From the NCBI GenBank assembly GCA_964364265.1, contig CAYILA010000004.1, positions 9,126 through 73,125 of the forward strand: 64,000 nt of DNA. The letters run 5' to 3'. The notes beneath the pieces were generated by a model. The model was not told where the DNA came from and did not search any database. It saw nothing but the letters and a program-made list of their open reading frames with translations. Every line of letters starts with the position of its first letter. Within the stretch, counting starts at the first letter, position 1. Positions 7,228 through 62,666 of the stretch are shown in pieces. Origin of the DNA: an uncultured Candidatus Saccharibacteria bacterium (GTDB lineage: Bacteria; Patescibacteriota; UBA1384; XYA2-FULL-43-10; 1-14-0-10-43-13). Made by a program: the position numbers and the translations under genes.

Positions 7228-7274
7228 TTCCTTCCTTTCTTAAAGGAGACTCTTAGTTCTATATCCCCTGTTTG

Positions 7275-7373
7275 TCATCTCGAGCTCCAAGAGGGGCACT
7301 TTGGGCTGATCCGAGAGATCTTTTAAAAGATTCCTCCGCTCCCCGACAAGTCGAGGTCGGTCAGAATGACATC
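7275..7373. repeat. PE-1 palindromic element (gtcatcYcga ... tcagaatgac), intergenic between rnj and pnp
   Basis: Inverted termini, internal ggatcttttaaaagattcctccgctcc core, nested ccaagaggggcactttggg GC hairpin. Confidence 0.7.
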
Positions 7374-11925: not shown

Positions 11926-12074
11926 ATATGTTAAAGTGTCTATTGTATTCCAAGCGCATCATTCCACTTCGTGTCATCCCGACCGAAGTGGAGGGATCTT
12001 TTAAAAGATTTCTCGACTCGATAGATTCACTCACTCGAAATGACAAACTAATTAGAAATATAGGAATTACTGTT

Positions 12075-12458: not shown

Positions 12459-12550
12459 TGTCATCCCGAGCCCCAAAGGGGGCCCTTTGGGCCGGGTCGA
12501 GGGATCTTTTAAAAGATTCCTCCGCTCCCTGCGGTTGGTCGGAATGACAG
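12459..12550. repeat. PE-1 palindromic element with nested GC hairpin (ccccaaagggggccctttggg)
   Basis: gtcatcccgag ... ggtcggaatgacag inverted termini with the family core. Confidence 0.7.
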
Positions 12551-18049: not shown

Positions 18050-19144
18050 TTATAGCTCCAATCTTAATTGACTATCCTTCTTCTTCTGTTCCTCGGTTAT
18101 TTTCCGTTGTTCTTCCGTCCGCCGGCCGGCGGATCCGTCCTTTCGTCTTTCAGTTTCCTTCGTAAATCTTTCAAGCAACGATTTAAACTGCAATTCCTCA
18201 AACAACTTCCGCAGTTCCCCCCTATCATACTGCCCCCATTTGGCATCTGCAAGAGAAAAATCAATCGGCACATTGCGTTCAATCGTGGCCAGCATTTGGG
18301 ATTGAAATGCCTGATCCTTGTGTTCGATCAACAACCTTAATATGCGAGGCTTTATATCCATTTGCTCGGCAAGCTTATCGATTGCTTCATTGTTCGATTG
18401 TTCGATTGTTAAATCAGCAATTGAGCAATTGAGCAATTGAGCAATCAGCCCATAAAGCTTCTCCAGCGTATCAAATTTAAGAATAAGATCAGTTGCAGTT
18501 TTGGGACCTATTGAAGGAACCCCGGGGATATTGTCCGAGGGATCCCCGGCAAGGGCTTTTAAGTCGACGAAATCCTCCGGATCGAGATTGTAAACCTCTT
18601 TCAAGTGTTTATGATCAAATATCTCCGCCTCCGAAAAGCCGCGCTTTAACATTAAAACTTTGACATGACCGTTTAGAAGTTGATAAACATCCTTGTCGCC
18701 CGAGGCGATGTAAATCATCAATTCTTCCTCTTGACTTTCGCCTTTCGCCTTTCGCCTTTCGCCTTTTAGGCATTTCTCTACTATTGTGCCGAGAATGTCG
18801 TCCGCCTCATATCCCTCTAGAGATAAAACCGGAATCCCGAAGGCCGCAAGCATCTCTTTTACCCGAGGAATCTGATCATAGAGTTCCTGATCGGCTTTAA
18901 CCCGCTTTGCTTTATATTCTTTATATTCGACATGCCGGAATGTCGGGCCGGCCAAATCAAAAGCGGCCGCGATGTAGTCGGGATGAAGTTCTTCGAGCAC
19001 CTTAATCAGCGCCAGAGCAAAACCGTAGGTTACATTAGTTAGTTCGCCCTTTGAATTCGATAAATTCTTAGGCAAAGCATGATAAGCCCGATGGATGATG
19101 GCGTTTGAATCGAGCAGGACTAAAGTTTTCATAACAAGATCCAA
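18050..19144 (-). CDS. 5'-3' exonuclease (Pol I N-terminal FEN-like domain) as a separate ORF
   Basis: 5'-nuclease domain with conserved acidic residues and H3TH; in-frame tandem-repeat insertions (caattgagcaat x3; cgcctttcgccttt x3). Confidence 0.85.
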   Translation of the reverse strand: MDLVMKTLVLLDSNAIIHRAYHALPKNLSNSKGELTNVTYGFALALIKVLEELHPDYIAAAFDLAGPTFRHVEYKEYKAKRVKADQELYDQIPRVKEMLAAFGIPVLSLEGYEADDILGTIVEKCLKGERRKAKGESQEEELMIYIASGDKDVYQLLNGHVKVLMLKRGFSEAEIFDHKHLKEVYNLDPEDFVDLKALAGDPSDNIPGVPSIGPKTATDLILKFDTLEKLYGLIAQLLNCSIADLTIEQSNNEAIDKLAEQMDIKPRILRLLIEHKDQAFQSQMLATIERNVPIDFSLADAKWGQYDRGELRKLFEELQFKSLLERFTKETERRKDGSAGRRTEEQRKITEEQKKKDSQLRLEL

Positions 19145-20793: not shown

Positions 20794-22533
20794 CTATATA
20801 ACCTCGAACACTTCCCCTACCGCTTTCTGTAATTCGTCATCGCTGGCCGGCTTCGCATCAATCTTTTTCCCGTCCATAAGTTCGCACCCTATTATACACT
20901 TTAAACCGGTAACATCATTCCAAATTTTTTCTAAAATCTGGCGATTTTTCACCTCCGATATCCGATCCTTGTGGAATTTGAATTTCACGCCCAAAACAAT
21001 TTTTTCGTTGCTGACCGTCAATGGTTTGGCGTCGCGGAGCAGTGCCGCCAGCGAGTTATTTTCCTTTTTGGTGGCATCGATTACCTTCTGCCAAAGATCG
21101 CCTGTCATCTCAAAAACCGGCGCCGGTGCTAGATCAGAATTGTTCAATTGCCCCAAAGGGGACTCTTCGGGTCTCATTGCTGAATTGTTGTCAGTAACAT
21201 CAGATTGTTTGGCTCCCGATTTCTTTTCGCTGTCATTGCGAGCCGTAGGCGCGGCAATCTTTTCTTCAGTTATGATAGATTGCTTCGTCGTTTCACTTCT
21301 CGCAATGACATCTTCTTTTAGCTTCTCCTTCTTTGGTTCTTCGGTTCCTCGGTTCTTCGGTTCTTCGATTTTTGAATCTTCCTCTTTTTGTTTTTCCTTC
21401 CTGGGCTGTTCCGCGTCCTTGGAATCCTCCCTTGATACTTGATACTTGATACTTGATACTTCTATGTTCGTCAACTCCACCACCGCCATCTCCAACGGCA
21501 AAATCGGGTTTGAGAGATCGCGGAGCAATCTCCCGCTTCCGATGAAGGTATCAATTGCTTTTTTGACCGTCTCATAATCGCAGTCAGAGGCCAATTTTTT
21601 GATTCTCTCGGTCCGCTCTTTCGTTTCCTCGAACAAGACACTGCCTGAAATTTGGTAAAGAAGTATTTTTCGCAGTGCTTCAATTACTTCGCGGATAAAC
21701 TGACTCGGATCGACTCCCTGTTCGTACAATTTTGAAATGATCGAAAGTCCTTTTTTCTGCTCTTTTGAAATTATCGCCTCGATCAGATCGAGGGCGCTCT
21801 CGCCGAATGATAGTCCCAGGAGGTTTTCGGCATCCTCTTTACTGATCTTACCGCCAAAACCGGCGACCTGCTCGAACAAGACGACTGAATCGCGAAAACC
21901 GCCCGCCGCCGCCGTGGCGATAGCGTCAAGCGCTCCGTCGTCTATGCTGATTTTCTCGGCCCTGGCTATCATTTTCAAATTTTTTATAATGTCCTCCTTG
22001 CCGACCCGCTTAAAATCGTAGCGCTGGGTCCGGGAGATGATAGTCGAAGGCAGTTTATGAATTTCGGTCGTCGCCAGGATGAAGACGACATGATCCGGCG
22101 GCTCCTCCAGCGTTTTGAGCAAGGCATTGAATGCCCCCTTCGAGAGCATATGAACTTCGTCGATGATATAAATCTTTTTGGAGGCCGAGGTCGGCGCCAA
22201 GCGGGCTTTGTCGATGATATCGCGGATATTGTCGACTCCCGTATGGGAGGCGGCGTCAATTTCGATTACATCAAGGGCGCTTCCGACCGCAATGGCCAGG
22301 CATTGATCGCACTTGTCGCAGGGTTCTCCGACCGCCAAATCCAAATTTTGGCAGTTGATCGCCTTAGCCAGAAGTCGGGCAGTGGTCGTCTTGCCGGTTC
22401 CGCGCGGACCGGTTAAGAGAAAGGCATGGGAAAGCCGGCCTAACTTGATTGCCGCCAGCAGGGTTTTACTGATGTGATCCTGGCCGATCAGGTCGGAGAA
22501 CTTTTGAGGACGGTATTTTTGATAAAAAGCCAT
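20794..22533 (-). CDS. dnaX: DNA polymerase III gamma/tau subunit
   Basis: AAA+ clamp-loader N-terminus (LLTGPRGTGKTT); in-frame tandem repeats ggttcttcggttcctcgg and atacttgat x3. Confidence 0.9.
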   Translation of the reverse strand: MAFYQKYRPQKFSDLIGQDHISKTLLAAIKLGRLSHAFLLTGPRGTGKTTTARLLAKAINCQNLDLAVGEPCDKCDQCLAIAVGSALDVIEIDAASHTGVDNIRDIIDKARLAPTSASKKIYIIDEVHMLSKGAFNALLKTLEEPPDHVVFILATTEIHKLPSTIISRTQRYDFKRVGKEDIIKNLKMIARAEKISIDDGALDAIATAAAGGFRDSVVLFEQVAGFGGKISKEDAENLLGLSFGESALDLIEAIISKEQKKGLSIISKLYEQGVDPSQFIREVIEALRKILLYQISGSVLFEETKERTERIKKLASDCDYETVKKAIDTFIGSGRLLRDLSNPILPLEMAVVELTNIEVSSIKYQVSREDSKDAEQPRKEKQKEEDSKIEEPKNRGTEEPKKEKLKEDVIARSETTKQSIITEEKIAAPTARNDSEKKSGAKQSDVTDNNSAMRPEESPLGQLNNSDLAPAPVFEMTGDLWQKVIDATKKENNSLAALLRDAKPLTVSNEKIVLGVKFKFHKDRISEVKNRQILEKIWNDVTGLKCIIGCELMDGKKIDAKPASDDELQKAVGEVFEVI

Positions 22534-22957: not shown

Positions 22958-25375
22958 ATGACAAGAAAAGAGCTGGCGCGAGAAATCGCCCAAAAAAGCG
23001 GACTAAGCTACAACCAGGCCGAAAGTTTGGTTGTCGCTTTAGGCGATGTAATCAGAGAGTGCTTGGCCAAAGGCGACCGAGTCGTCTATTCTAATTTTGG
23101 CACTTTTTACACCGTCCACTACCCCTCAAAAGTGATCAACCACCCCAAATACGGGGCCCAAAAGAAGATAATAATGCTGCCGACCAATGTCGCTAAGTGG
23201 ATGCCCTCGGGAAACATCAAAAGCATGGTCGGTCAAGGCGAAGAAAGGGAGTCTGTGACTGCCCACGGTTTGAAGGGCGTCAAAAAGGCCGAACCGATTT
23301 CAAGCCCGAATCAGGAGTCAAATTTCAGTCAAAATTACTTCCGCAACGACCCGGAAAACTCAAATGATGAAAATAATAATCCCGACCTATCAAATACTGG
23401 CCGGATGACACCGGCATCCGAAGAACAACCAAAAACCAATGCCAATGTTTATGAAGAACTGATGAATGACGGCGGCCGCGAGGAAGCGACCTTTGACGGC
23501 GTAATCCGTCTACATGAGAGAAAACCGTTTTGGAAAAGAATCTTCCAAAAGGATTCCGAAACGACAGCCGACTCGGAGAGCCAGGGAATGGTCGGCTCCG
23601 GCATCTTCAATAAGGAAAACACCGAACTTCCCGATCACAATCCCTCCGCGCAACATCCGCCCGAACAACATACTTCAGCTTTTGCCAACCAACCTCATGA
23701 AGCGAAAGCTTACATCCAGCAACCGGCTTCCGGGCATACCGGGTTTGAATTTAGTCCCAAACCGGTTGATCCAACCGCTACAGCGGAACCAAAAGAACGA
23801 GATATGACTCCGTTCAAAGCGCCGGCCGGCCAGATTACCTATACCGATCTTTCCAGAAAAGTGGTGCCCAAAGAACTTCTCGCCAAAATTCCCGAGAAAA
23901 TCGCCCGCCAGTTTATGGCGGTGCCGGTCGAGGAAACTCCGACCGAGATGATTGTCGGCATGATCGATCCGGAGGATATTGAAGCGCGCGAATTAATAAA
24001 GAAATTAGTCCAAAAGACGGTTGTCCCGAAGCTGGCGACCGAGGAAGATGTCAACCACATTCTGGATCAATATCAGGGGCTGGAGTCCGAGGTCAAAGAG
24101 GCAATCGAGGAGGCGAAAGAAGAAGACGATCTGGTGATCAAGAAATCGGAGAATAGTAAAACCCTCTTTGATATCGCCGCCGACGACGCTCCGGCCGCCC
24201 GAATTGTCGGTTCGCTTCTGAAGCGGGCGATTCGCGATAAGGCCTCTGACATCCACATCGAACCGCTTGAAACCGAGATTCAGGTCCGGTTTCGAATTGA
24301 CGGCGTTTTGCAGAAGAAAATCACTCTGCCCAAGGATATCCTCTCGGCAGTCGTGTCGCGGGTCAAGATTATGTCAAACCTAAAAATCGACGAGCAACGG
24401 CTTCCCCAGGACGGTCGATTTTCAATCCATATGGATGAAAGGAAGGTTGATTTCCGTGTTTCAAGTATGCCGACCGCTTTCGGCGAAAAAGTTGTTATGA
24501 GAATATTGGATAAGATGACCGGTATTCTGACCGTCGAACAGCTCGGTCTGGAGGGCTCCGGCTTGGAGAAATTAAAAAACAATCTGGAGAAATCCCATGG
24601 CATGATTCTGGTGACCGGACCGACCGGTTCAGGCAAAACCACAACACTCTACGCCCTCATCGACCGACTCTTTGCCGAGGGAGTAAATATCGTAACCTTA
24701 GAGGATCCGATCGAATACCAGATTCCGGGTATCAATCAAAGCCAGGTCAATCCCGATATTAAATACACTTTTGCCAACGGCCTGCGCTCCATCGTCCGCC
24801 AGGACCCGGATATCATTATGATTGGCGAAATCCGCGACGGCGAGACGGCCGAGATGGCGGTCCAGTCGGCTCTGACCGGCCACATCGTCCTTTCTACGCT
24901 TCATACGAACGACGCCGCCGGCGCCTCCCCCCGACTGATCGATATGGGAGTCGAGCCGTTCCTGCTAACTTCATCCGCCAATGTGATTATCGGCCAAAGA
25001 TTGGCTCGAAAAATCTGTCCTGATTGTAAAGAACAGGTTACTTTGCCTGTGTCTGAAATTGAAAAGATTAAAGAGATTGTCAATAAAATGCCTGAAAAAG
25101 AGCGGACCGCAGTTTTAAGCAAGCCCCCCGTTTTCTATCACGGCAAGGGATGCAAAAGCTGTAACGATTCCGGCTATACCGGCCGGCTCGGTATCTTTGA
25201 GGCTCTGGAGATGACTGAAAAAGTCAAGGAGTCGATCTTAAAAAAAATATCATCCAGCCAAATCCAGGAACTGGCCATTTCGGAGGGAATGGTCACTATG
25301 ATCCAGGATGGCATAATCAAAGCCCTAAAGGGTATGACCTCAATCGATGAGGTCTGGAGAGTAACCAAGGACTAG
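22958..25375 (+). CDS. pilB: HU/IHF-like DNA-binding domain fused through a ~200-aa disordered linker to a type IV pilus assembly ATPase PilB/GspE
   Basis: Residues 1-92 resemble HU; the C-terminal part has a T2SSE N-domain, Walker A GPTGSGKTTT and a tetracysteine motif; one uninterrupted 805-aa frame. Confidence 0.8.
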   Translation: MTRKELAREIAQKSGLSYNQAESLVVALGDVIRECLAKGDRVVYSNFGTFYTVHYPSKVINHPKYGAQKKIIMLPTNVAKWMPSGNIKSMVGQGEERESVTAHGLKGVKKAEPISSPNQESNFSQNYFRNDPENSNDENNNPDLSNTGRMTPASEEQPKTNANVYEELMNDGGREEATFDGVIRLHERKPFWKRIFQKDSETTADSESQGMVGSGIFNKENTELPDHNPSAQHPPEQHTSAFANQPHEAKAYIQQPASGHTGFEFSPKPVDPTATAEPKERDMTPFKAPAGQITYTDLSRKVVPKELLAKIPEKIARQFMAVPVEETPTEMIVGMIDPEDIEARELIKKLVQKTVVPKLATEEDVNHILDQYQGLESEVKEAIEEAKEEDDLVIKKSENSKTLFDIAADDAPAARIVGSLLKRAIRDKASDIHIEPLETEIQVRFRIDGVLQKKITLPKDILSAVVSRVKIMSNLKIDEQRLPQDGRFSIHMDERKVDFRVSSMPTAFGEKVVMRILDKMTGILTVEQLGLEGSGLEKLKNNLEKSHGMILVTGPTGSGKTTTLYALIDRLFAEGVNIVTLEDPIEYQIPGINQSQVNPDIKYTFANGLRSIVRQDPDIIMIGEIRDGETAEMAVQSALTGHIVLSTLHTNDAAGASPRLIDMGVEPFLLTSSANVIIGQRLARKICPDCKEQVTLPVSEIEKIKEIVNKMPEKERTAVLSKPPVFYHGKGCKSCNDSGYTGRLGIFEALEMTEKVKESILKKISSSQIQELAISEGMVTMIQDGIIKALKGMTSIDEVWRVTKD

Positions 25376-26591: not shown

Positions 26592-26657
26592 ATGTCATCC
26601 CGAGCGAGTATAACGAGCCGAGGGATCCCTCCGTTCGCTCCGCTCAGTCGGGATGAC
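26592..26657. repeat. PE-1 palindromic element
   Basis: gtcatcccgagcgag ... ctcagtcgggatgacac. Confidence 0.65.
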
Positions 26658-26748
26658 ACTAATGTATTACTTTAAGGACTTTATAGACTTTCGACTATAA
26701 TTTCATTAATGTTATAATTACCAATAGAAATGAATTGCTAGGAGGGTA

Positions 26749-32445: not shown

Positions 32446-32871
32446 ATGAATAATACTGATAAAAATGATATGACCGTTTCCGAGCTTGCCCGGATAATGG
32501 ACAAAAAGTTTGACGGATTGACCGAGATTATGATCTCCGGTTTTGACCGTTTGGAAAAACGATCGGACGATATAGAGAGCGATGTAGAGATCATCAAATC
32601 CGATGTCGGAGTACTCAAGTCTGATGTTGGCACGCTCAAGTCTGATGTTGGCACGCTCAAGTCTGATGTTGGCACGCTCAAGTCTGATGTTGGCACGCTC
32701 AAGTCTAGTATGATAGATGTTCAATTAACTCAGAGAAAACATACTGAAACGCTTGCCGAACATTCAAAAATCCTTCACCGGATAGAAGGCGATGTAGAGA
32801 TGCTGATCGACCGCGACCTCAATCATGAAACGCGTATCGGAAGATTGGAAAAAATCGCCAAACCGATTTAA
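32446..32871 (+). CDS. Coiled-coil protein with 4 tandem 7-aa repeats (KSDVGTL) from a 21-nt DNA repeat
   Basis: caagtctgatgttggcacgct x4 at 32618-32701; heptad periodicity. Confidence 0.5.
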   Translation: MNNTDKNDMTVSELARIMDKKFDGLTEIMISGFDRLEKRSDDIESDVEIIKSDVGVLKSDVGTLKSDVGTLKSDVGTLKSDVGTLKSSMIDVQLTQRKHTETLAEHSKILHRIEGDVEMLIDRDLNHETRIGRLEKIAKPI

Positions 32872-32879: not shown

Positions 32880-32925
32880 CGAGCGAGGTCGCCACGGCGA
32901 CCGAATCGAGAACTCCTCGTCCACT
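32880..32925. repeat. ttgttcgagc-hairpin-tcgagaac element (family copies at 52140-52200 and 53950-54005)
   Basis: gttcgagcgaggtcgccacggcgaccgaatcgagaac. Confidence 0.5.
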
Positions 32926-33059
32926 GTCATTTCGAGTGATCCGCCAGCTGGCGGAGAACCGAGAAATCTTCTGATTAATGTGATCAAACAAAAAAGACCC
33001 CGTCATTCGACAGGGTCCTTTTGCTTCTTCCGTATAGCTTAACAAATTAAGCAATTCGG

Positions 33060-36223: not shown

Positions 36224-36304
36224 CTGTCATTCCGACCGAAGTGGAGGGATCTCTTTGATTCTATCACAAAGGGATTCTCACGTCGCTTCGCTCCTCAGAA
36301 TGAC
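36224..36304. repeat. PE-1 palindromic element
   Basis: ctgtcattccgaccgaagtggagggatc ... cagaatgacgc. Confidence 0.65.
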
Positions 36305-36385
36305 GCATTGAGAGAGGATATAGCGCTTACTTGCTTACTTGCCCTGAAAGGGCCCCTTTCCCAAAGGGAAGCCTTCGGCTTGGGG

Positions 36386-38637: not shown

Positions 38638-38654
38638 TACAAACTCCGTTTGAA

Positions 38655-38745
38655 AATTCTAATATCGAATATCTAAATCCGAAACAATTTTCAAAATTCG
38701 AATTTCTAATTTGTTTCGATATTCGGATTTCGAGTTTCGTATTTA
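38655..38745. repeat. PE-2 element; also encodes the C-terminus (ETRNPNIETN) of the methyltransferase ORF
   Basis: atctaaatccgaaacaattttcaaaattcgaatttctaatttgtttcgatattcggatttcg. Confidence 0.6.
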
Positions 38746-40250
38746 AGAAATACAATCTCTCTTTTTACGACTTGATAATCTCTGCCATAAATCAATGGCG
38801 GACGCTCTTCAATATATCCTAAACTTTTAATTTCGTCAACACTCTCCCAATACAAACTGTAGCGTTTATTTTCCGTTGTCTCGATGAGTGGAAATACGAT
38901 ACAGACCGCCTCAATCTTTTTATCCAACTTTTTGATATTTTTCAAGAAATTGATGTAAGTATCCTTCACTTTCCGGTACTCACCTGCGGCGGCGCTCTGT
39001 GAAGGCATAAACTTCTTTGGCTCACCCAAGTAAGGTTCCGTAACCAGAACCATATTAGAATCTAGATTTTTGCCATGCCTGCCGGCAGGCAGGATTTTAG
39101 AATTTAGAATATTAATAAGTTCAGATGAAGTTGCATCTTCCTTAAAAAATCCTAAATTCGTACTTCTAGAATCTAGCATCTTCTCTTTTAGCCATTCCAA
39201 ATTCTTTTTTGTGTCTGATACCGCCTTCTCACTGATATCAGAGCCGATTACATCGCACCACAGCATCGCGGCTTCCATTAAAATATTACCGGAACCGCAG
39301 AAGGGATCTACCACCGCACAACGGTGGAAATCCAAATCCCTAATATCTAAATCCGAAACAATTTTTGAATTTTCAAAATTCGAATTTTTGATTTCTTTAG
39401 GATTTAGGATTTCGGATTTCGGATTTGCGTATGCGAGTGCAATGTTAACCATTGCACGAGCTAATTTATGTGGCATCATTCCCGAATATTTGTCAAAAGC
39501 CGGTTTTTCGTAGTCTCGCTCTGACCATTCTTCCGCATCGCTCAAACCGACGAGAACCCCCGCTGCCACCCCCGGTGTGGCAGCGGGGGTGTCGAACAAT
39601 CCTATCTCGATGCCTTTCCCGACAAGGTCGTTTTTAAGGGAAACGATGGATGAAAGAGCGTCCTCTTGACGAGATTCAATAAATCTTGCGGGGTGAGCGC
39701 CTTTTAACAAACGTTTTACCTCCAACCCCAAAGTATATATTTCACTCTTTTTAGCTGCGCCGAAATATTGGGAGATTCCAAAATTAATCTTACCGGTCCG
39801 CCCCATCTTCTCACGCTTAATTATGTCAGCTATTGCTATAGCCAATCCATGACTTGTCATCCCGACCGTTCCTCCTGTCATCCCGACCGAAGTGGAGGGA
39901 TCTTTTGATAGGAGACGTCGTCCCGAGCTTGCCGAGGGATTCCTCGGCTTCTTTTCATTTCGCTCGGAATGACAATTAATGAGACGGAATATTTTTATAG
40001 TGCCGCCAAGTATTTCGGAGAGCTTCGCCACTTCATCAGCTTCAATATTTTCTATGTTGATGACGGCAACATTTCCCGTTACTATGGGTTTATCAAAACA
40101 AAAACCAAGACGGCCCAAAGTCGCCTCCAACTCGACGAGCGCAATCTCTTTTTCTCGTCCCAAAACAAAAGCATATGTTCTATAGGTTTGGCTATTGTCC
40201 ATAATCGTATAATCATACCAGAAACACTTTATCCTGTCACGAGTAATCAA
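38706..40250 (-). CDS. Putative THUMP-type RNA (guanine-N2/adenine-N6) methyltransferase carrying four in-frame repeat-element insertions
   Basis: SAM motif VVDPFCGSGN; PE-1 x2 (39855-39974), PE-2 (39336-39428), GC palindrome (39068-39100) and a terminal PE-2 all read through in frame. Confidence 0.55.
   Translation of the reverse strand: MITRDRIKCFWYDYTIMDNSQTYRTYAFVLGREKEIALVELEATLGRLGFCFDKPIVTGNVAVINIENIEADEVAKLSEILGGTIKIFRLINCHSERNEKKPRNPSASSGRRLLSKDPSTSVGMTGGTVGMTSHGLAIAIADIIKREKMGRTGKINFGISQYFGAAKKSEIYTLGLEVKRLLKGAHPARFIESRQEDALSSIVSLKNDLVGKGIEIGLFDTPAATPGVAAGVLVGLSDAEEWSERDYEKPAFDKYSGMMPHKLARAMVNIALAYANPKSEILNPKEIKNSNFENSKIVSDLDIRDLDFHRCAVVDPFCGSGNILMEAAMLWCDVIGSDISEKAVSDTKKNLEWLKEKMLDSRSTNLGFFKEDATSSELINILNSKILPAGRHGKNLDSNMVLVTEPYLGEPKKFMPSQSAAAGEYRKVKDTYINFLKNIKKLDKKIEAVCIVFPLIETTENKRYSLYWESVDEIKSLGYIEERPPLIYGRDYQVVKREIVFLKYETRNPNIETN
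39336..39428. repeat. PE-2 element inside the methyltransferase CDS, in frame
   Basis: Encodes NPKSEILNPKEIKNSNFENSKIVSDL. Confidence 0.7.
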
Positions 40251-40395
40251 TAGAGACTAATTACAAATTTCTAATTCCTCATCAAATCTCAATTGTAAAA
40301 TTAAATAATTGGTGTTTGGTCATTATTTAGAAATTAGAAATTCTGATTTAGAAATTTAAGGGATCCCTCCGCTTCGGTCGGGATGACAGCAATTT

Positions 40396-43300
40396 ATGCC
40401 AGATGAATCTAAAACTGAAGAGTTCAAGCCTTCTCCCTTCGTCCACCTCCATGTGCACAGTCATTATTCGATGCTGGACGGTATGGGCAAGATCCCCGAT
40501 CTGGTCGCTAAGGCCAAAGCCGACGGTCAAACCGCCCTTGCTATTACCGACCACGGCGTCATGCATGGGGCGATTGAGTTCTATGAAGAATGTGAAAAAG
40601 AGGGCATTTTGCCCCTGATCGGGGTCGAGATATATATGGCGCCCCGGACACTCAAGGACAAAACCCCCCGGATCGACGCCAACCCCTATCACCTCGTTCT
40701 GATCGCCAAGAACGAAGAGGGTTATAAGAATCTATTAAAAATCACGACAATCGCCCATCTGGAGGGATATTATTACAAACCGAGAATCGATAAGGCCACG
40801 CTCAAGAAACACTCCGCCGGTTTGATTGCCCTTTCCGCCTGTTTGCAGGGCGAAATCCCGCGCAAAGCGCTTGAAAATATGGACAGAGCAAGAGGAGCAA
40901 TCTTGGAATACAAGGAGATATTTCCAAACGGCGATTTTTATCTCGAAGTCCAAAAACACCCCTCGATCCAGATTCAAGACCGGGTCAATAAATTGATATT
41001 ACAACTTGCCAAAGAAACTGGTCTCAAAGTAGTCGCCACCTGCGACACCCATTATGTCAATCCGGACGACGCCATTGCCCAAGACGCTCTCATCTGCCTC
41101 CAGACCGGCCGTATTCTCTCCGATACCAACCGTATGTCGATGAAGGGGGATGATTACTCCTTAAAGACCACCGCCGAGATGATGGCCAATTTCCCCGATA
41201 ATCCCGAGACAATCACTAACACCCAAGAGATCGCGGAGAAGTGCAACCTTCACCTCGAGCTCGGCGGAATGATCTTTCCGGTCTTTCCTGTCCCGGAGAA
41301 CTATAGCATTGAATCTTATTTTATGGAGAAGGCCTATCTCGGGCTGAACTGGCGCTACGGAAGCGAGAAGATCAATAAAGATGATCTATATGCCGCTATT
41401 GATGTCATTCCCACCTCCTCTCCTGTCATCCCGACCGAAGCGGAGGGATCCCTCGACTCGCAAACCACACTCTCTCGGGATGACATTTTTAATGTTCAAT
41501 TCAAGAAAATAACGGCAGATATATTAAAAATATCACCTGAAATCTGGGAACGAGCCGAATACGAACTGGGCGTGATTAATAAAATGGGCTATCAGGGCTA
41601 TTTCTTAATTGTGGCCGACTATGTCAACTGGGCCAAGGAGCAGGGAATAGCCGTCGGTCCGGGCCGCGGCTCGGCCGCCGGTTCAATCATCGCTTTCGGC
41701 ATGAATATCACCAATCTTGACCCGTTGCAGTTCGATCTCCTCTTTGAACGATTTTTGAACCCCGATCGAATAAGCATGCCGGATGTTGATATGGATTTTG
41801 CCGATTCCAGACGGGGTGAGGTAATTGAATATGTTTGTTCCAAATATGGCCGCGATCATGTCGCCCAGATTATCACCTTTGGCACCATGGCTGCCAGGAT
41901 GGCGATACGCGATGTCGGGCGGGTTTTGGGCATGAGCTATGCCGAGGTTGACCTGATAGCCAAGCTAATTCCCCTTGGCATGCATCTGCAGGAGTCGATC
42001 GATTTCGTCTCCGAGCTCAAGGATCTCTACTCGGCTAATGCTCAAGTCAAGGAGTGTCTCGATATCGCCAAGAAGCTGGAGGGTGTTGTCCGCCACGCCT
42101 CCGTTCACGCCGCAGGCGTGGTCATTTCAAAGGAAAGATTGACCGAATATGTCCCCCTCCAGGAAGCTGCCAAAGGTGATATTTCAGTCGTAACCCAGTA
42201 CTCGATGAACCCGATCGAACACCTCGGCCTTTTGAAAATGGACTTTCTCGGCCTTTCCAACCTCACCATCATCCAAAATGCTCTTCGTATCATTCGCAAA
42301 ACTAAAAATACCGAGCTCGATATTGATAGTATCCCCTTGGATGATAAAGAAAGTTACAAGCTCCTCTCCCGCGCCGAAACGATCGGCATCTTCCAATTGG
42401 AATCGGAGGGCATGCGCCGCTACCTGAAAGAACTCAAACCGAATGTCTTTGAAGATATTATCGCTATGGTCGCTCTCTATCGTCCCGGCCCGATGCAATG
42501 GATTGACTCCTTCATCGCCCGCAAACACGGCAAAGAGCCGATCAGCTACGCTCACGAAAAAGCCAAGGCCTCGCTTGAAAATACCTACGGAATCATTGTC
42601 TATCAGGAACAGTTGATGCAGATGGCCAAGGATATGGCCAATTTCAGCGGCGGCCAGGCCGACACTCTCCGCAAAGCGACCGGCAAGAAAATCAAGGAAT
42701 TGATGGTTAAGGTCGGCAAAGAGTTTGTCGAAGGTTGTATTAATAACGAGATTGATAAGAAAATCGCCGAAGAGCTTTACCACGCTATGCAGGATTTCGC
42801 CCAATACTCCTTCAACAAATCCCATGCCGCCTGCTACGCCCTAATCTCTTATCAGACCGCCTATCTTAAAGCCCACTATCCCTCCGAATTTATGGCTTCT
42901 TTAATGACCTCGAACCAGGGCGATCTCGATAAGCTGGCGATTGACATTTCCGAATGCGAGCGGATGGACATTAAAGTCCTCCCCCCTTCGGTTAATGAAT
43001 CCTTCGTCGAGTTCGGTGTGGTCAAGGAAACCGGTAATGTCCGCTTCGGCCTTTCGGCTATCAAGAATGTCGGTGCGGCCGTGGCCGAAGAGATCGTCGA
43101 GGAGAGGAAGAATAATGGAATCTATGCCGACCTCAAAAGTTTGATAACGCGGCTTGATGCCAAAGTAATAAACAAGAAATCACTCGAAGCCCTGATTATG
43201 GCCGGCGCTTTGGATGACCTGGGGGAGAGAGCCGAATTGATATACAATCTGGAACGGATTTTGAGCTTTGCCAATTCTTTTTCAAAAAACAAGACCTCGG

Positions 43301-46336: not shown

Positions 46337-46420
46337 CCATCTTGTCATTCCGGCCTAGAAGCTTGAGAGCCGGAATCTTTCTCAAGATTCCCGATCAGGT
46401 CGGGAATGACATCACTTGAT
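46337..46420. repeat. PE-1 palindromic element
   Basis: cttgtcattccggcctag ... ggtcgggaatgacatc. Confidence 0.65.
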
Positions 46421-46497
46421 TGAATTGCTAATTTGGTAATTGGTTGTTGATTAGTAATTAGAAATTCTTAATTCGACATTTGCAATGTTTAGTTCTA

Positions 46498-49147: not shown

Positions 49148-49399
49148 TTATTTCATTAATCTTTTGAAAGCTTCACCGCCTTTATAAGATTTGATTTGTT
49201 TTTCCCGTCTCATCGCTTCTGACCTTGTTTCAAAGATCTCCGTGTATTTGACTATCCAAGGAATGCCGTTCTTAGTAGACCGAGTCATGCCATCGTTGTG
49301 TCTCTCTAATCTGACTGTCATATCCTCGCACGATCCGATATAAAATCTTCCGTGTTTTTTACTTTGAATCACATAAGCATAAAACGACATATAATCCAC
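49148..49399 (-). CDS. GIY-YIG nuclease family small protein
   Basis: YAYVIQSKKHGRFYIGSCEDMTVRLERHN...REKQIK matches the GIY-YIG core; likely start is the ATG at 49390, since the GTG at 49399 lies inside the tRNA-fragment repeat. Confidence 0.8.
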   Translation of the reverse strand: MDYMSFYAYVIQSKKHGRFYIGSCEDMTVRLERHNDGMTRSTKNGIPWIVKYTEIFETRSEAMRREKQIKSYKGGEAFKRLMK

Positions 49400-52047: not shown

Positions 52048-52270
52048 CGAGACCTCCTCTCAAGGGCGCGTCCAGTCGAAATGATAGTACATTATGGCTC
52101 TCAAATTAGTCAACAAAAAAGCTGGGTGACCGCAAGGTTAAAAGGCTCTTTTCCTATTGATAGTTCTCGACCCCGCCTTGGCGGGGCTCGAACAATAATG
52201 AAGCTGGATTCCCGCTGGAGTTTATCCCGTACTCCGATACGGGGCGGGAATGACTCGACAAAATATCGCC

Positions 52271-53521
52271 TTAAATTTTCCCTCGTAACTTGGCGGCGGA
52301 GAGGATGCGTTTCATAGCTATAATGTAGGCCGCGGTGCGGTAGTCGGTTTTTGATTCCTTCGCCTGATCGGAAACCCGCTTCCAGGCGTCTTTCATCATT
52401 AGTTCAAGCTTCTTCTTCAGGTACTCCGGATCAAGGATATTTCCGGTCCGATTCTGCGCCCACTCAAAGTAGGAGACAACCACGCCTCCGGCGTTGGCTA
52501 GGATATCAGGAACGATCGCCACACCTTTTTCAAACAATATCTTGTCCGCTTCAGGCGTAATTGGCCCGTTTGCAAGTTCAATTATGTACTTGGCTTTAAT
52601 CTTGCCGGCGTTCTCCTTCGTAATCTGATTTTCAAGCGCCGCCAATATCAGGACATCAACATCCAATTCCAATAATTCATCATTGGAAATCTGCCGGCCC
52701 ATTGGACATTCACAGCTTTTGACGGTACCCTCTTTTTCCTTCAAAGCCGTTAGTTTATCAAAGCAGATCTTTTTTTGGCAGTTCATCCCCCCTCGGCTGT
52801 CCGAAACGCCGACTATCCGGTATCCGGCATCAAGGAGCATCTTGGCAAAGTTATGCCCGGCGTTGCCGAACCCTTGAATTGCGATTTTTAAGTCCTTTTT
52901 ATTCGTAAGATCCCTCGACTTCGCTCGGGATGACAGGGAGGAGATAAGCTCCTCGAATATTAGATAGGCACCGCGCGCAGTTGAATCCGATCGCAAAGCG
53001 ATTCCGCCAAGGTCGATTGGCTTGCCGGTTATCATCCCCGGCTCATGATGCCCGACTTTCTTCTCGTATTCATCCAAAATCCAAGCCATAATCTGGCCGT
53101 CGGTATAAACATCTGGCGCCGGTATATCGGTGTCCTGTCCCAAGACCTTGTAGAAGGCGCGAGAATAGCTTCTGGAAACTTTTTCTAGGTATTTTTGGCT
53201 CTTGCCCTTCGGATTAAATTTCACTCCGCCTTTTGCGCCGCCGTACGGGAGACCAAGCAAAGAATTTTTCATACTCATCCAAAATGAGAGCGATTTGACC
53301 TCGTCTTCCGATACTTCGGGGTGAAATCTGATCCCGCCCTTGCCCGGTCCCAAATCATTGTTGTGAACAATTCGCCAACTCGGCAGCTTATCGCCTTCAA
53401 TATTCAATATCGATTTGCTGACCTGATGGTGCTTTAATAAATATTTGATCTCGTTGTCATTAAATCCGGCAATATCTTTAATTTTATCTAATCTATCAAT
53501 AATCGAGTTGAATGTGGACAT
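52271..53521 (-). CDS. gdhA: Glutamate dehydrogenase (Glu/Leu/Phe/Val dehydrogenase family)
   Basis: GGIRFHP ... GGAKGG catalytic region and NAD(P)-binding Rossmann motif GFGNAG; in-frame PE-1 half-insertion (LSSRAKSRDL). Confidence 0.9.
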   Translation of the reverse strand: MSTFNSIIDRLDKIKDIAGFNDNEIKYLLKHHQVSKSILNIEGDKLPSWRIVHNNDLGPGKGGIRFHPEVSEDEVKSLSFWMSMKNSLLGLPYGGAKGGVKFNPKGKSQKYLEKVSRSYSRAFYKVLGQDTDIPAPDVYTDGQIMAWILDEYEKKVGHHEPGMITGKPIDLGGIALRSDSTARGAYLIFEELISSLSSRAKSRDLTNKKDLKIAIQGFGNAGHNFAKMLLDAGYRIVGVSDSRGGMNCQKKICFDKLTALKEKEGTVKSCECPMGRQISNDELLELDVDVLILAALENQITKENAGKIKAKYIIELANGPITPEADKILFEKGVAIVPDILANAGGVVVSYFEWAQNRTGNILDPEYLKKKLELMMKDAWKRVSDQAKESKTDYRTAAYIIAMKRILSAAKLRGKI

Positions 53522-54544: not shown

Positions 54545-55840
54545 ATGAAGAAAGTATTTATTGCAATGAGCGGTGGGGTAGACAGTTCTGTGGCCGCGGC
54601 TCTCCTCAAAGATCAGGGATACGATGTTACCGGCGTATTCATGAAGTTCTGGAGCCCCAACTTCGCTTCCGCCTCCGGCGGAGCTTCGCTGGGCGAGCCC
54701 GACGACAATCAGAGCTCTTTTTGCCTATGGAAGAAGGAGCGCGAAGATGCCCTGCGCGTCGCCGCCATCATAGATATTCCACTTTTAACTTGGGATTTCA
54801 CTAAGGAATACGAGAGTAAGGTTGTTGATTATATGATTGATGCCTACAAACAGGGTATAACTCCCAATCCCGATCTGATGTGTAACAAAGAGATCAAGTT
54901 CGGAATGTTCTTTAATAAAGCTCTTGCCGAAGGCGCCGATTTAATCGCGACCGGACATTACGCGCAAATTAGAATTAAGAATCAAGAATTAAGAATCAAG
55001 GGTAGTTGTCATTCCTGCGAAAGCAGGAATCTTAAGATCCCTGATCTAGTCAGGGATGACAGTCATAACGGATACGAACTGTTAAAGGCGAAAGATCTCA
55101 ATAAAGATCAAAGCTATTTCCTATACACGCTTAACCAGAAACATCTAAGCAAGACCTTGTTCCCAATCGGAAAATACACCAAACCACAAGTGCGTGAACT
55201 TGCAAAGAAGTTCGGTCTCCCGACAGCCGAGAAGAAGGATAGCCAGGGCGTCTGCTTTATCGGACCACTCAAAGTCAGGGAATTTCTGAAGGAGAGAATC
55301 AAACCGAAAAAAGGCAGCATAGTCAAAATTAGTAAATCAGCCCCGAAGGGGAGCCTTCGGCTCCATCAGCTAATCAGTAAATCAGTTATAAAATCTGATC
55401 CGCTTGTTTTTGGTACTCACGACGGAGTTTATTACTACACTATCGGCCAGCGGCACGGTATGGACATTAAAAACGGCGGCGGTCCATACTTTGTGACCAG
55501 AAAAGATGTTAAGAAAAATATTCTCTATGTCGGAGAAGAGAAAGATCTCTATTCCGATACGGCCATTGTGCCTAATGTAACTTGGGTTGGGGCAATGCCA
55601 ATACTACCCGCCGAAATTGGAGTTAAGATTAGGTATAGAAGCGAGTCCATTCCGTGTGTGCTGGAAAACAATGAAGCAATTGAACAATTGAACAATGACG
55701 GGCTTTGTACTGCTGAATCAGAGAGATATAATCATTCACTAAAACTACGATTTCATAAAAGAGCAAGAGCCATCACACCCGGACAGGCTGCTGTCTTCTA
55801 TGACGATGATAAAGTCCTCGGAGGCGGGACAATTATTTAA
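54545..55840 (+). CDS. mnmA: tRNA-specific 2-thiouridylase MnmA
   Basis: PP-loop SGGVDSS; in-frame inserts: aattaagaatcaag tandem, PE-1 (55006-55062, CHSCESRNLKIPDLVRDDS), and a caattgaacaat tandem (NNEAIEQLNN). Confidence 0.9.
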   Translation: MKKVFIAMSGGVDSSVAAALLKDQGYDVTGVFMKFWSPNFASASGGASLGEPDDNQSSFCLWKKEREDALRVAAIIDIPLLTWDFTKEYESKVVDYMIDAYKQGITPNPDLMCNKEIKFGMFFNKALAEGADLIATGHYAQIRIKNQELRIKGSCHSCESRNLKIPDLVRDDSHNGYELLKAKDLNKDQSYFLYTLNQKHLSKTLFPIGKYTKPQVRELAKKFGLPTAEKKDSQGVCFIGPLKVREFLKERIKPKKGSIVKISKSAPKGSLRLHQLISKSVIKSDPLVFGTHDGVYYYTIGQRHGMDIKNGGGPYFVTRKDVKKNILYVGEEKDLYSDTAIVPNVTWVGAMPILPAEIGVKIRYRSESIPCVLENNEAIEQLNNDGLCTAESERYNHSLKLRFHKRARAITPGQAAVFYDDDKVLGGGTII

Positions 55841-57430: not shown

Positions 57431-60076
57431 TTATTTCGGCCACTTTGCGATCATAATCGATTCCGATAGTTTCGGATAAATCTGGCGCAAATCCTGCCAG
57501 ACAGCTTCGGTTACAAACGGCATGAATGGGTGAAGCATAATTAGAGTTTCTGAAAGAACTTTCATTAAGATTTTCTTCGTATTTGTGATCACCTCAATAG
57601 ATTCATTGTCATTCGGTTTTCGGTTTTCGGTTACGAGACCCGTTTCGGTTACGTCGGACGTTTTACGTGACCGCTCGACGATACGGACTTCGCCTGCCTC
57701 GCCGGTAGGCGGGTTACCGTTACCGCATGACGGTTGTAGCTGTGCCTTCGATGCTTCGATGTAAACATCGGCAAAGCTGTGCCAGAAGTACTCGTACAGC
57801 TTCTCACCCGCAAGCGAAAATTTATATTCATCGAGTAAGCGTGTTACTTCATTTTTGATCTCTTCATGCTCTTTCAAGATTGCTTTGTCGGCATCTGTCA
57901 ACCCGGGGACAGTCCCCGAGGGGGACAGTCCCCTTGCAATCCTTGATTCTCCAATGTCACCGCTCTGTAAGTCACCGTCTGAAACTCGCAGGATCACATA
58001 GCGCGAGGCGTTCCATATTTTATTCGAGAAATTTCGATATCCCTTGATTTTCGCCTCGCCAATGGGAATATCCTGGCCGGGCGTTGAGCCCACCACAAGT
58101 GCCATACGCATGGCGTCCGTACCGTATTTGGGTATTAAATCAAGAGGATCAAGGACATTGCCCAAAGATTTGCTCATCTTGCGGTTCTGCTCATCGCGCA
58201 CTAAACCATGGAGATAAACAGTCTCAAAGGGCGCTTTACCTGTAAATTCCAGTCCAAACATTATCATTCTAGCTACCCAGAAGAAGAGGATGTCGTAGCC
58301 GGTCTCCATCACACTCGTCGGATAGAAATATTGATAATCGCAATTAGTTATTCCCGACGCATAGGAGAATGGATGACTATTGCAATTTTCTTCGCTGTCA
58401 TCCTCGGGCTTGACCCGGGGATCTTTCGAAAGATTCCCGATCTGGTCGGGAATGACATCGCTGGACTGAGGCCAGCCAAGAGTTGAGAACGGCCAAAGAG
58501 CAGAGGAGAACCAGGTATCAAGCACATCCTCGTCCTGAACCCAGCCATCGCCTTCCGGCGGTTCAACGCCGACATAGATCTCGCTGTCGCTCGACAAATC
58601 CGAATCTCTAATATCTAAACCTACCTGTCCGGTAGGCAGGTCCGAAACAATTTTTGAATTTTCAAAATTCGAATTTCTAATTTCTTTAGGATTTAGGATT
58701 TCGGATTTCGGATTTCCTGCCTGTCTGTACCAAACCGGTATCTGATGTCCCCACCAGAGCTGACGCGAAACACACCAGTCGCGGATATTATCCATCCACT
58801 GGTAATACACTTTATCGAACCTGTTTGGAATTATTTTAATCTCACCGCTCTCAACCGCTTCTTTCGCCTTGTCGGCCAACGGCCGCATCTTTACAAACCA
58901 CTGTTTGGATGGAATCGGCTCAATCGATCCCCCACACCTATAACACTTGGATAAGTTATTCGTAATCTCCTGCTCCTTTTCAAGCAGTCCCTGGCTCTTC
59001 AAGTATTCAACCAATTTCTCGCGTGCCTCCGACACTTTTATACCGGTATATTTCCCGGCTTCATCCGTCATCTTGCCGTATTCATCAATAACTTTGATGA
59101 CAGGCAAACCGTTATCCTCGGCCATTTTCCAATCGGCGAATGAGTGCGCCGGCGTCAAACCGACCGCGCCTGTTCCGAATTCCTTATCTATCGATCGATT
59201 GGCGATAATTTTAATAGTCCTTTTGACTCCATCAATATCAACTTCATATGATTTACCCACAAATTCCTGATATCGCCGGTCATCCGGGTTTACGGCCACG
59301 CCGGTGTCGCCCAATTTTGTTTCGGGACGGGTGGTGGCGATGGTTACGGGAAAATTTTTATCGTATTTGAAGTAATATAATTTAGCGTTTTGTTCCTCGT
59401 ATTCCACCTCATCATCGGAAATTGCCGTCTGGCAACGCGAACACCAATTCACTACCCGCAACCCTCGATAGATGAGGCCTTTTTCGTATAGCTGGACGAA
59501 AGCTTCGCGCACGGCGCGGTTTAAGCCCTCATCCAATGTAAAGCGCTCTCTTGACCAATCGCAAGACGCTCCGAGGCGCTTTATCTGCTCGGTGATGATA
59601 CCTCCGTACCGCTCCTTCCACTCCCAAACTTTTTCGACAAATTTCTCCCGCCCAAGATCGTGCCTATTGATCCCCTGTTTCCGTAATTCTTTATCAACCA
59701 CTGTTTGAGTGGCAATACCGGCATGATCCGTGCCTGGCAGCCACAGAGTCGGCTCGCCTTTCAAACGATGATATCGAGTCAAAATATCTTCCAAGGTGAC
59801 AAACATGGCGTGACCCATATGCAATTTACCTGTAACATTCGGCGGCGGCATTGAAATCACAAAGGGCTTGCCGTCTTTGTCTCGATCATAGCTGAAGGAA
59901 CAACCACCAACCTTGTCATCCTCGGGCTTGACCCGGGGATCTTTTGCAACAAGATTCCCGCTTTCGCGGGAATGACAATAAGAAGTCTCCGGTTTAAAAT
60001 AACCTTTTTCTTCCCATTGTTTATAGAGTTCGGTTTCAAAATTTTGCGGTTCATATGCCTTTGGTATGTTTTTCAT
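57431..60076 (-). CDS. valS: Valyl-tRNA synthetase with three in-frame repeat-element insertions
   Basis: HIGH-class motif PPPNVTGKLHMGHA and KMSKS; PE-1 at 59914-59977 and 58405-58470; PE-2 with a nested GC palindrome at 58598-58716. Confidence 0.95.
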   Translation of the reverse strand: MKNIPKAYEPQNFETELYKQWEEKGYFKPETSYCHSRESGNLVAKDPRVKPEDDKVGGCSFSYDRDKDGKPFVISMPPPNVTGKLHMGHAMFVTLEDILTRYHRLKGEPTLWLPGTDHAGIATQTVVDKELRKQGINRHDLGREKFVEKVWEWKERYGGIITEQIKRLGASCDWSRERFTLDEGLNRAVREAFVQLYEKGLIYRGLRVVNWCSRCQTAISDDEVEYEEQNAKLYYFKYDKNFPVTIATTRPETKLGDTGVAVNPDDRRYQEFVGKSYEVDIDGVKRTIKIIANRSIDKEFGTGAVGLTPAHSFADWKMAEDNGLPVIKVIDEYGKMTDEAGKYTGIKVSEAREKLVEYLKSQGLLEKEQEITNNLSKCYRCGGSIEPIPSKQWFVKMRPLADKAKEAVESGEIKIIPNRFDKVYYQWMDNIRDWCVSRQLWWGHQIPVWYRQAGNPKSEILNPKEIRNSNFENSKIVSDLPTGQVGLDIRDSDLSSDSEIYVGVEPPEGDGWVQDEDVLDTWFSSALWPFSTLGWPQSSDVIPDQIGNLSKDPRVKPEDDSEENCNSHPFSYASGITNCDYQYFYPTSVMETGYDILFFWVARMIMFGLEFTGKAPFETVYLHGLVRDEQNRKMSKSLGNVLDPLDLIPKYGTDAMRMALVVGSTPGQDIPIGEAKIKGYRNFSNKIWNASRYVILRVSDGDLQSGDIGESRIARGLSPSGTVPGLTDADKAILKEHEEIKNEVTRLLDEYKFSLAGEKLYEYFWHSFADVYIEASKAQLQPSCGNGNPPTGEAGEVRIVERSRKTSDVTETGLVTENRKPNDNESIEVITNTKKILMKVLSETLIMLHPFMPFVTEAVWQDLRQIYPKLSESIMIAKWPK
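58598..58716. repeat. PE-2 element inside valS, in frame, with a nested GC palindrome
   Basis: Encodes NPKSEILNPKEIRNSNFENSKIVSDL then PTGQVG. Confidence 0.7.
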
Positions 60077-61532: not shown

Positions 61533-61650
61533 GATATATTGTTTTGTCATCCCGAGTGAAACGAAGTGTAACCGAGGGATCTTTGTATAGTAAACTCGAT
61601 TTATTTATAAGATTCCTCCGCTCTCGCGACACACCGGTCGGAATGACAAT
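61533..61650. repeat. PE-1 palindromic element
   Basis: gtcatcccgagtgaaacg ... gattcctccgctctcg ... ggtcggaatgacaat. Confidence 0.65.
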
Positions 61651-62628: not shown

Positions 62629-62666
62629 TTGCTCAATGGCTCGATTGCTCGATTGTTAGGATAACA

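Follow-up and report, generated by a model that had tools for sequence, protein, structure and literature searches.

In-frame insertions of paired NTS/SRM-type hairpins in housekeeping genes of a Patescibacteria contig

The 64-kb stretch of contig CAYILA010000004.1 analyzed here (the window) comes from a Berkelbacteria-like Patescibacteria (candidate phyla radiation, CPR) contig from Hainich groundwater, and it contains a palindromic repeat, PE-1, both between genes and inside housekeeping genes. Rather than being a new repeat, PE-1 consists of two hairpins of the NTS/SRM type, which form a family found across phyla and tied to the Ssn GIY-YIG nucleases. The copies inside genes are lineage-specific insertions in unstructured loops, as seen in orthologue alignments, PDB alignments, and an AlphaFold model, with loop placement checked for ValRS and MnmA. 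PE-1 is probably a small non-autonomous derivative of SRM-ssn-SRM units, similar to a miniature inverted-repeat transposable element (MITE), and selection would keep those copies that lie in loops, in frame and free of stops. Three of the host genes, valS, dnaE, and dnaX, are essential by general knowledge rather than by data from this organism.

About 17 PE-1 loci were found in the window, 10 between genes and seven inside six genes (Table 1), and the identity of the host genes was confirmed by Pfam, with domains in a single frame on either side of the copies. The six intergenic copies of the original prediction are all present, as are the two copies that it placed between 58382 and 59977, both in valS, and the in-frame copies in dnaE (41403-41485) and mnmA. 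While all listed copies were real, the list overlooked the copy in dnaX, the copy 5' of rpsT, and the three half units that lie outside genes. The sequence GTCATCCCGA occurs 25 times at one mismatch or less, compared with 4.9 times in shuffled sequences, and the hairpin unit GTCAT-NNN...rc(NNN)-AT occurs 25 times, compared with 1.4.

The basic unit consists of (T)GTCAT, a stem that starts with the head's own AT, a variable loop that is sometimes a small hairpin in its own right, the complementary stem, and then ATC. The unit sequences include the 26-mer GTCATCCCGACCGAAGYGGAGGGATC, the commonest in the window, and GTCATCCTCGGGCTTGACCCGGGGATC. Most loci are two inverted units around a short spacer (TGTCATYCCGA...TCGGRATGACA, 53-118 nt). 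In the relatives compared, namely loci L001-L004 and L085 (the closest relative, with a syntenic contig), the contigs of L002-L004 match the window in unit density. Altogether 57 strict units were found in the window and three related contigs, where 3.1 were expected. These units use eight different stem triplets, each matched by its exact complement, and thus the pairing is conserved and not the letters. As single-stranded DNA (ssDNA), the elements fold into two adjacent hairpins or a single long one, and the seven full elements that were folded have z-scores of -2.2 to -5.8, while the lone gdh half unit (z -0.4) folds no better than shuffled sequences. The flanks of 24 doublets contain no direct repeat that would represent a target-site duplication; only a T before GTCAT and an A after ATGAC are found.

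In Neisseria, the NTS (CGTCATTCCCGCGMAVGCGGGAATCYRG) corresponds to dRS3 in oriented form (Chenal et al., Nat Commun 2025, PMC11893778). SsnA, a 94-aa single-domain GIY-YIG nuclease, binds the hairpins of the wider class, the Ssn-related motifs (SRM), as ssDNA; it requires GTC upstream of the stem for cleavage and C right after the stem for binding (PMC11893778). Copies of the motif typically lie on both sides of ssnA genes, an arrangement that the authors liken to an insertion sequence as a hypothesis (PMC11893778). One arm of the N-terminal valS copy (59953-59976, GTCATTCCCGCGAAAGCGGGAATC) is the exact NTS core. The published SRM pattern (HGTCWY..stem..loop..stem..RNCYNB) matched four times in the window, three of them in valS, compared with 0.13 in shuffled sequences. 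The remaining units keep GTCAT...ATC with longer loops and fit only a relaxed form of the SRM. The GTC before the stem and the C after it are retained in nearly all PE-1 units.

The same units are found beside ssn genes elsewhere. The SsnA probe was recovered from a Neisseria gonorrhoeae chromosome, where it encodes 94 aa and has seven NTS within 600 nt on either side. Exact copies of the 26-mer are present in at least 119 metagenome contigs, whose GC content covers 32-69%. Among 80 loci holding it (442 kb), seven contain an SsnA homologue (E 1e-11 to 1e-24), and in five of the seven no more than about 300 nt separate the 26-mer from the ssn open reading frame (ORF), forming clear SRM-ssn-SRM units. 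The dnaE and methyltransferase copies of the window have a composite end, in which TGTCATYCC..ACC is followed by a pyrimidine run and then the 26-mer (TGTCATYCC..ACC-(Y-rich)-TGTCATCCCGACCGAAGYGGAGGGATC), and the same composite end flanks ssn in two of the contigs (L157 and L089). An end common to the doublets and the ssn flanks is the relation expected of a MITE and its autonomous parent.

An in-frame doublet was also observed outside the CPR. Plasmid pMC4 of Sphingopyxis indica (NZ_CP076395.1) has an annotated intact ileS (517-3588) with an NTS-type doublet at 2503-2579, in frame as RHPRESGDPERASANPTLDSRFRGNDK, and a further half unit at 817-840. Since this ileS is alphaproteobacterial, the phenomenon is not restricted to CPR.

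The clearest genic case is valS (57431..60076, minus strand), which encodes 881 aa and carries two full PE-1 elements. The element near the N-terminus forms two hairpins as DNA (-16.5 kcal/mol, z -4.7). The element after STLGWP, translated across as ...VIPDQIGNLSKDPRVKPEDDSE..., folds at -15.9 kcal/mol (z -3.9) and fits the published SRM pattern. The nearest relatives of this ValRS carry the names Berkelbacteria or Patescibacteria, and compared with the shortest orthologues (717-720 aa) its excess lies in four blocks, which coincide with breaks in the alignment to Thermus thermophilus ValRS (1GAX). In 1GAX numbering, block 3 (about 40 aa) is inserted at 474/475 and block 4 at 659/663. The PE-1 copies occupy blocks 1 and 3. 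In an AlphaFold (AF2) model built on 107 orthologues (mean predicted local distance difference test, pLDDT, 84; predicted TM-score 0.83), residues 455-496, 541-562 (and 570-572), and 784-818 are coil with pLDDT below 50. Weaker dips are seen at 42-45 and 54-56, with pLDDT of 54-58 over residues 41-60. The low-confidence coil is confined to the four inserts, which are flanked by confident core elements.

Other ValRS proteins vary at the same places. The 107 aligned orthologues range from 706 to 903 aa, with four hot spots at which their longer inserts (10 aa or more) are clustered. A regular expression for the peptide signatures was too strict (two matches), and the hot-spot segments were therefore read directly. 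Many of them contain SRM-type peptides (CHSGLDPES...DSRLRGNDK, VIPAKAGIQ...DPRVKPEDD, VIARSETTKQS...LAMT), and others contain unrelated sequence. L002, whose ValRS is 65% identical, has the same doublet at block 4, and its blocks 1 and 3 lack it; compared with the window, one arm has 27 identical nt, and the other has a single base change in the loop.

A second palindromic element, AT-rich and about 100 nt long (AAATCCGAAATCC...GGATTTCGGATTT), was observed at valS site 2 (58600-58716) and in the methyltransferase gene (39325-39427). The two copies are about 96% identical and both are in frame as NPKSEILNPKEI(R/K)NSNFENSKIVSDL, and the valS copy has an additional 21-nt hairpin. NPKS/IRNSN-like peptides also occupy the site-2 hot spot in other ValRS orthologues. 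Related repeats are at 20648-20785, 22546-22660, 38651-38745, 40249-40357, and 46276-46481.

The other genic copies are also lineage-specific. The 36-aa stretch in dnaE is missing from all nine closest orthologues aligned, one of them 77% identical, and L085 has an empty site there. Two further PE-1 copies, one upstream of dnaE and one between the glycosyltransferase and ndk genes, are likewise missing in L085. In the RlmK-like methyltransferase gene (38706..40250, minus strand), the flanks of the insert are conserved in the L085 orthologue, which has no SRM insert. Two tandem copies had been predicted in this gene; the repeat is indeed in frame, but it amounts to about 1.5 elements plus a partial end rather than two clean copies. 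In the solved structure of Bacillus subtilis MnmA (9hlv), the position of the mnmA insert falls between residues 134 and 137, and the inserted element forms two hairpins (-15.1 kcal/mol, z -5.8). In L004, mnmA has a different SRM-type insert in the same loop. The alignment check that the original prediction had proposed places the ValRS and MnmA inserts in loops, at the 1GAX and 9hlv breaks, and shows empty sites in the closest relatives for dnaE and the methyltransferase. The dnaX element (-19 kcal/mol, z -5.8) is flanked on both sides by Pfam DnaX domains in one frame. The empty sites in the closest relative, together with the same doublet at another position of valS, point to mobility.

A third repeat family (ATTGTTCGATTGTT...CAATTGAGCAATTGAGCAAT) was seen in frame in mnmA (55660-55696) and in the 5'-3' exonuclease ORF 18050..19144 (18373-18453). 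The L004 orthologue has no counterpart of its mnmA copy (ENNEAIEQLNND), and the Pfam match of the exonuclease spans about 25 extra residues at its copy. Intergenic relatives are at 10038-10125, 61934-61970, and 62624-62700.

The gdh copy needs separate treatment. A palindrome had been predicted here, and a copy is present, but it is a half unit without the full palindrome. Extra residues in this loop occur in only three of 120 orthologues. The window and L004 have the half unit in the same loop with 28 nt of perfect identity, and this is the longest exact match between the two gdh genes, which are 61% identical. At the third codon positions of their conserved residues the identity is 44%, and indels are found on either side of the half unit. 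The identity could reflect two independent insertions of a common unit in a permissive loop, or constraint at the nucleotide level.

These comparisons make it hardly conceivable that the inserts were inherited as ancestral protein sequence or arose as artefacts of assembly. The window does belong to a metagenome contig of low coverage (cov_7 in the record name), as an artefact would suppose. However, the orthologue alignments show lineage-specific presence, the identical ValRS protein was recorded in two assemblies (an NCBI contig and an ENA contig; Hainich groundwater well H51), and the same kind of insert is found in many independent assemblies and in an annotated gene of an isolate plasmid.

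We then consider how the copies relate to reading frames. The genic copies introduce no stop, as originally noted, although this partly follows from how intact genes are recognized. They use all three frames relative to GTCAT. The intergenic copies, counted in the window, have no more than 1-3 open frames out of 6, as random sequence would, and the lengths of the 24 doublets modulo 3 are evenly spread (9/9/6). A built-in coding design, as in the Rickettsia palindromic elements (RPEs), was therefore rejected. The coding share of the window is about 84%, while seven of 17 copies are genic, indicating depletion in coding sequence (binomial p 8e-5). Even so, this genic share of 41% compares with 2% reported for the copies of N. 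meningitidis (PMC11893778). In the 80 metagenome loci, nine of 88 copies of the exact 26-mer lie in long open frames, mostly in high-GC contigs, where this has little meaning, and thus in-frame insertion is not claimed as general for this unit. The simplest reading is random insertion, followed by the loss of copies that break the frame, bring a stop, or hit structured parts of the protein.

A different way to tolerate such inserts would be to remove them by RNA processing, translational bypass, or protein splicing, so that the mature enzymes lack them. Stable hairpins might be processed or hopped over. We consider this very improbable, because all genic copies are in the host frame and stop-free while intergenic copies are open in under half of the frames, and because the dnaE insertion totals 108 nt, a multiple of three. 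We looked for split genes around the intergenic copies and found none; the flanking ORFs are distinct, complete genes. No intergenic copy divides one gene, which also argues against removal from RNA. No intein or intron features were seen, and an Rfam scan of the window returned only four tRNAs at threshold.

The genic copies might instead be kept by a host function, either as Ssn targets that limit recombination of incoming ssDNA or as RNA hairpins that pause translation or stabilize mRNA. SsnA with NTS modulates transformation in Neisseria (PMC11893778), the gdh half unit is preserved between two species, and the exact 26-mer persists across contigs of widely differing GC. This explanation seems improbable to us, since the copies are strongly depleted in coding sequence, the closest relatives lack copies at the same sites with no visible consequence, and the hot spots carry unrelated inserts in other orthologues. 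The gdh case would also be explained by independent insertion of a common unit in the same loop.

Table 1. PE-1 loci in the window, ordered by position. A dot marks loci for which no strand is assigned.
Feature	Position	Strand	Remarks
Full element, intergenic	7273..7371	.	RNase J / PNPase genes
Full element, 5' of S20 (rpsT) domain-coding region	11972..12045	.	S20 domain from residue 53 of long ORF
Full element, intergenic	12459..12549	.	3' of rpsT
dnaX linker, variant full element	21231..21310	.	stem ATTGCGAG/CTCGCAAT; read as VIARSETTKQS...IAAPTARND
Full element, intergenic	26593..26658	.	pilC-like (T2SSF) / pilM genes
Half unit, single, intergenic	32925..32968	+	
Full element, intergenic	36225..36305	.	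gltX / UPF0102 gene
RlmK-like methyltransferase insert	39855..39974	.	partial end + half unit + full element; read as CHSERNEKKPRNPSASSGRRLLSKDPSTSVGMTGGTVGMT
Half unit, single	40362..40388	-	between start codons of methyltransferase and dnaE
dnaE insertion	41389..41496	+	108 nt, aa 332-367; partial end (41404-) + full element (41424-41485); read as VIPTSSPVIPTEAEGSLDSQTTLSRDD
Full element, intergenic	46343..46411	.	glycosyltransferase-4 / ndk genes
Half unit, single	52206..52255	-	directly 3' of gdh stop codon
gdh half unit	52909..52935	-	27 nt, 9 codons; read as SLSSRAKSR
mnmA full element	55007..55061	.	read as CHSCESRNLKIPDLVRDDS
valS insertion site 3, full element	58396..58458	.	after STLGWP; read as VIPDQIGNLSKDPRVKPEDDS
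valS insertion site 1	59914..59977	.	near N-terminus; two inverted units; read as CHSRESGNLVAKDPRVKPEDDK
Full element, intergenic	61545..61648	.	tsaD / femAB-like genes

On the preferred reading, the non-autonomous element would be made up of two inverted NTS/SRM-type hairpin units, and its full-length relatives would be the SRM-ssn-SRM units, with the same hairpin ends around a gene for an Ssn-family GIY-YIG ssDNA endonuclease of about 90 aa. The short doublets were most likely mobilized in trans, on single-stranded DNA and without target duplication. In a genome as compact as this one, many insertions would hit genes, and purifying selection would spare the copies that are in frame, carry no stop in that frame, and lie in permissive surface loops. 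In the translated proteins, the surviving copies would appear as additional disordered loops, about 9-40 aa in length. We infer that a particular enzyme, such as Ssn, moves the doublets, and that they move as single strands. A bolder form of this idea, in which SRM doublets are MITEs moved by Ssn as a new class of transposase and are a cross-phylum source of in-frame loops (in Patescibacteria, sphingomonads, and possibly as the RPEs), is conceivable, though we regard it as doubtful.

Several points weigh against the derivation from SRM-ssn-SRM units. The searches for partner genes, which covered the window and the five related loci (L001-L004 and L085), yielded neither an ssn gene nor a transposase of any Pfam family; in the window, the transposase scan was run with Pfam on the larger ORFs (100 aa or more) and an 80-aa GIY-YIG ORF. 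Transposition by Ssn has never been demonstrated, and what the source paper demonstrates is limited to the cleavage of ssDNA and an influence on transformation (PMC11893778). The loops of most window units exceed the limit of the published SRM pattern. Low pLDDT in the ValRS inserts can also result from the thin alignment in these columns, and the 28-nt identity in gdh is hard to fit with simple neutral decay after an old insertion. We also count on this side that the translation of the inserts is a reading of the nucleotide sequence; the peptides are presumably made. Finally, the sole GIY-YIG gene of the window does not appear to be a cognate ssn, as described below.

Some of these points would suit an engine other than Ssn, with the elements mobile and ssn a passenger or controller. 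The mover could be an IS200/IS605- or RAYT-type tyrosine transposase, the latter as for REP/REPIN sequences, or the copies could arise by hairpin-driven template switching at replication or by gene conversion. The lack of an ssn gene in the window and the five related loci despite the density of elements, the REPIN-like doublets, the lack of target duplication as in ssDNA transposons, and the fact that nuclease activity is all that was shown for Ssn agree with this. On the other hand, the conserved head is GTCAT and not the GTAG of REPs, no scanned ORF of the window has a Y1 transposase domain, and the exact unit and the composite end flank ssn ORFs in unrelated contigs. We therefore consider an engine of this kind unlikely, and derivation from SRM-ssn-SRM units remains our preferred reading.

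The GIY-YIG gene of the window (49148..49390, minus strand, 80 aa) has PF01541 as its sole significant Pfam match (E 9.5e-13), with a negligible match to T5orf172 (E 0.055). In size it fits the single-domain class (about 80-100 aa) of the Ssn family (cd10448). Ssn membership has been defined by blastp to Neisseria SsnA with E < 1e-10 and at least 75% coverage (PMC11893778), and the window protein falls outside this limit, with 28% identity to N. gonorrhoeae SsnA, 36.6 bits, and a pairwise E of 1e-9. A tblastn search with the window protein against a plasmid collection, which included two mis-filed Neisseria chromosomes, found nothing at 1e-3. Flanking by SRM was not seen in 80 homologous loci (410 kb): the SRM pattern occurred once (0.8 expected), and the relaxed unit 34 times (24 expected). 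A same-strand tRNA gene is directly beside the ORF in 50 out of 50 homologous loci scanned (set L005-L084), which span CPR, Bacteroidota, Ignavibacteria, and others. Given the low identity, the lack of SRM enrichment, and the tRNA-adjacent clade, the gene was rejected as a cognate Ssn. It looks like a tRNA-gene-associated GIY-YIG element that is distinct from Ssn. The ORF ends 5 nt before tRNA-Ser(GCT) (49051-49143, minus strand), and it is preceded by a partial copy of the 5' part of this tRNA gene (49397-49450; common sequence GGAGAGATG...CTAAACCGTCGGTGG). In some homologous loci, tandem tRNA-Pro copies are about 363 nt apart with the ORF in between.

Other repeats and genes of the window were also recorded. 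A short hairpin family (GCCCCAAAGGGGACYCTTCGGGTCT) occurs at 12461-12494, nested in the PE-1 element at 12459; at 21141-21174, in frame inside dnaX (MRPEESPLGQL); and at 33472-33505, 36332-36359, 45139-45172, and 55331-55364. Inverted copies of a perfect 40-nt GC-rich hairpin (GATAGTTCTCGACCCCGCCTTGGCGGGGCTCGAACAATAA) flank the gdh-thioredoxin gene pair (52159-52198 and 53964-54003). Between dnaE and the next gene there is a DUF559 (Vsr/REase-like) endonuclease gene (44163-44537, 124 aa), which the syntenic L085 does not have. Copies of the repeat family CTCCTCCTAnnnTAGGAGGAG... bracket this gene at 43808-43843 and 44498-44544, and the family is also found at 1117-1200, 11841-11876, and 33318-33406. 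The 3' 56 nt of tRNA-Gln (31455-31528) are repeated exactly 143 nt downstream (31616-31671), which looks like an attachment-site duplication or the remnant of an insertion beside the tRNA. At least four tandem 21-nt repeats (GATGTTGGCACGCTCAAGTCT) at 32581-32706 would form a 7-aa coding repeat in ORF 32446..32871 (141 aa, no Pfam match). The polymerase domain of DNA polymerase I and the 5'-3' exonuclease are encoded by separate adjacent ORFs (16636..17928 and 18050..19144), and a PilB-like T2SSE ATPase (22958..25375) has a fused N-terminal HU-type (Bac_DNA_binding) domain.

For 25 years the spread of protein-coding palindromes, among them the Rickettsia elements, has awaited an explanation. 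The present results tie the in-frame insertion phenomenon to a hairpin family with a biochemically characterized nuclease, Ssn, which makes it testable whether Ssn moves the doublets. They also account for part of the odd length variation in housekeeping proteins of Patescibacteria, ValRS for example. Repeat-derived peptides (VIPAKAGIQ, SFPRRRES, LRGNDK) may mislead annotation, domain searches, and alignments of CPR proteins as spurious low-complexity segments.

PE-1 resembles several known systems. Like REP, BIME, and REPIN sequences, the elements are short hairpins with a conserved 5' head, often in inverted doublets, and are linked to a gene for a small single-domain nuclease that has the same hairpins on both sides, with a presumed action on ssDNA and no target duplication left. 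However, REPs have the head GTAG, a Y1 (HUH) transposase (RAYT) in place of a GIY-YIG nuclease, and an almost entirely extragenic location; with the GTCAT head and no Y1_Tnp in the scanned window ORFs of at least 100 aa or the 80-aa GIY-YIG ORF, PE-1 is placed outside the REP/RAYT group. With MITEs such as Correia, ERIC, and Nezha, it shares small size, lack of coding content, terminal inverted repeats, high copy number, and ends in common with a longer coding unit, and intragenic in-frame copies are known for some MITEs. It differs in having no target-site duplication and a presumed partner that is not a DDE transposase.

The closest match is to the NTS/SRM family. Both have the unit (C/T)GTCAT, a stem beginning ATYCC, a loop, and GGRAT-C, and both are strongly over-represented. 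In the window, the units are mostly inverted pairs, many with longer structured loops that the published pattern misses, the host is from Patescibacteria, a lineage unmentioned in PMC11893778, and the 64 kb hold no ssn.

The RPEs were described for Rickettsia as ten families of about 100-150 bp (Ogata et al. 2000, 2002, as cited in PMC10969869). As described there, they are dispersed palindromes, often in frame in unrelated housekeeping genes, with fold-compatible peptides and no transposase known, and the likeness drawn in the original prediction is upheld by the orthologue alignments, in which the PE-1 copies are insertions and not ancestral. Going by that description, each RPE family has a conserved peptide, whereas PE-1 uses three frames and has no coding design. 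Rickettsia is among the genomes with more than 300 SRMs (PMC11893778), and a link between RPEs and SRM would be plausible. A search of plasmids for an RPE-like variant returned no Rickettsia record. The NTS/SRM unit family was thus known already, and the in-frame behavior is the Rickettsia palindromic element phenomenon. For Patescibacteria we found no account of it in the literature on CPR palindromic elements or on the DNA strings, where the Ssn paper and a review of MITEs were the only relevant publications. What is new is that SRM doublets are often inserted in frame in genes for replication and translation in a Patescibacteria lineage, and that they are linked to the ends that flank ssn.

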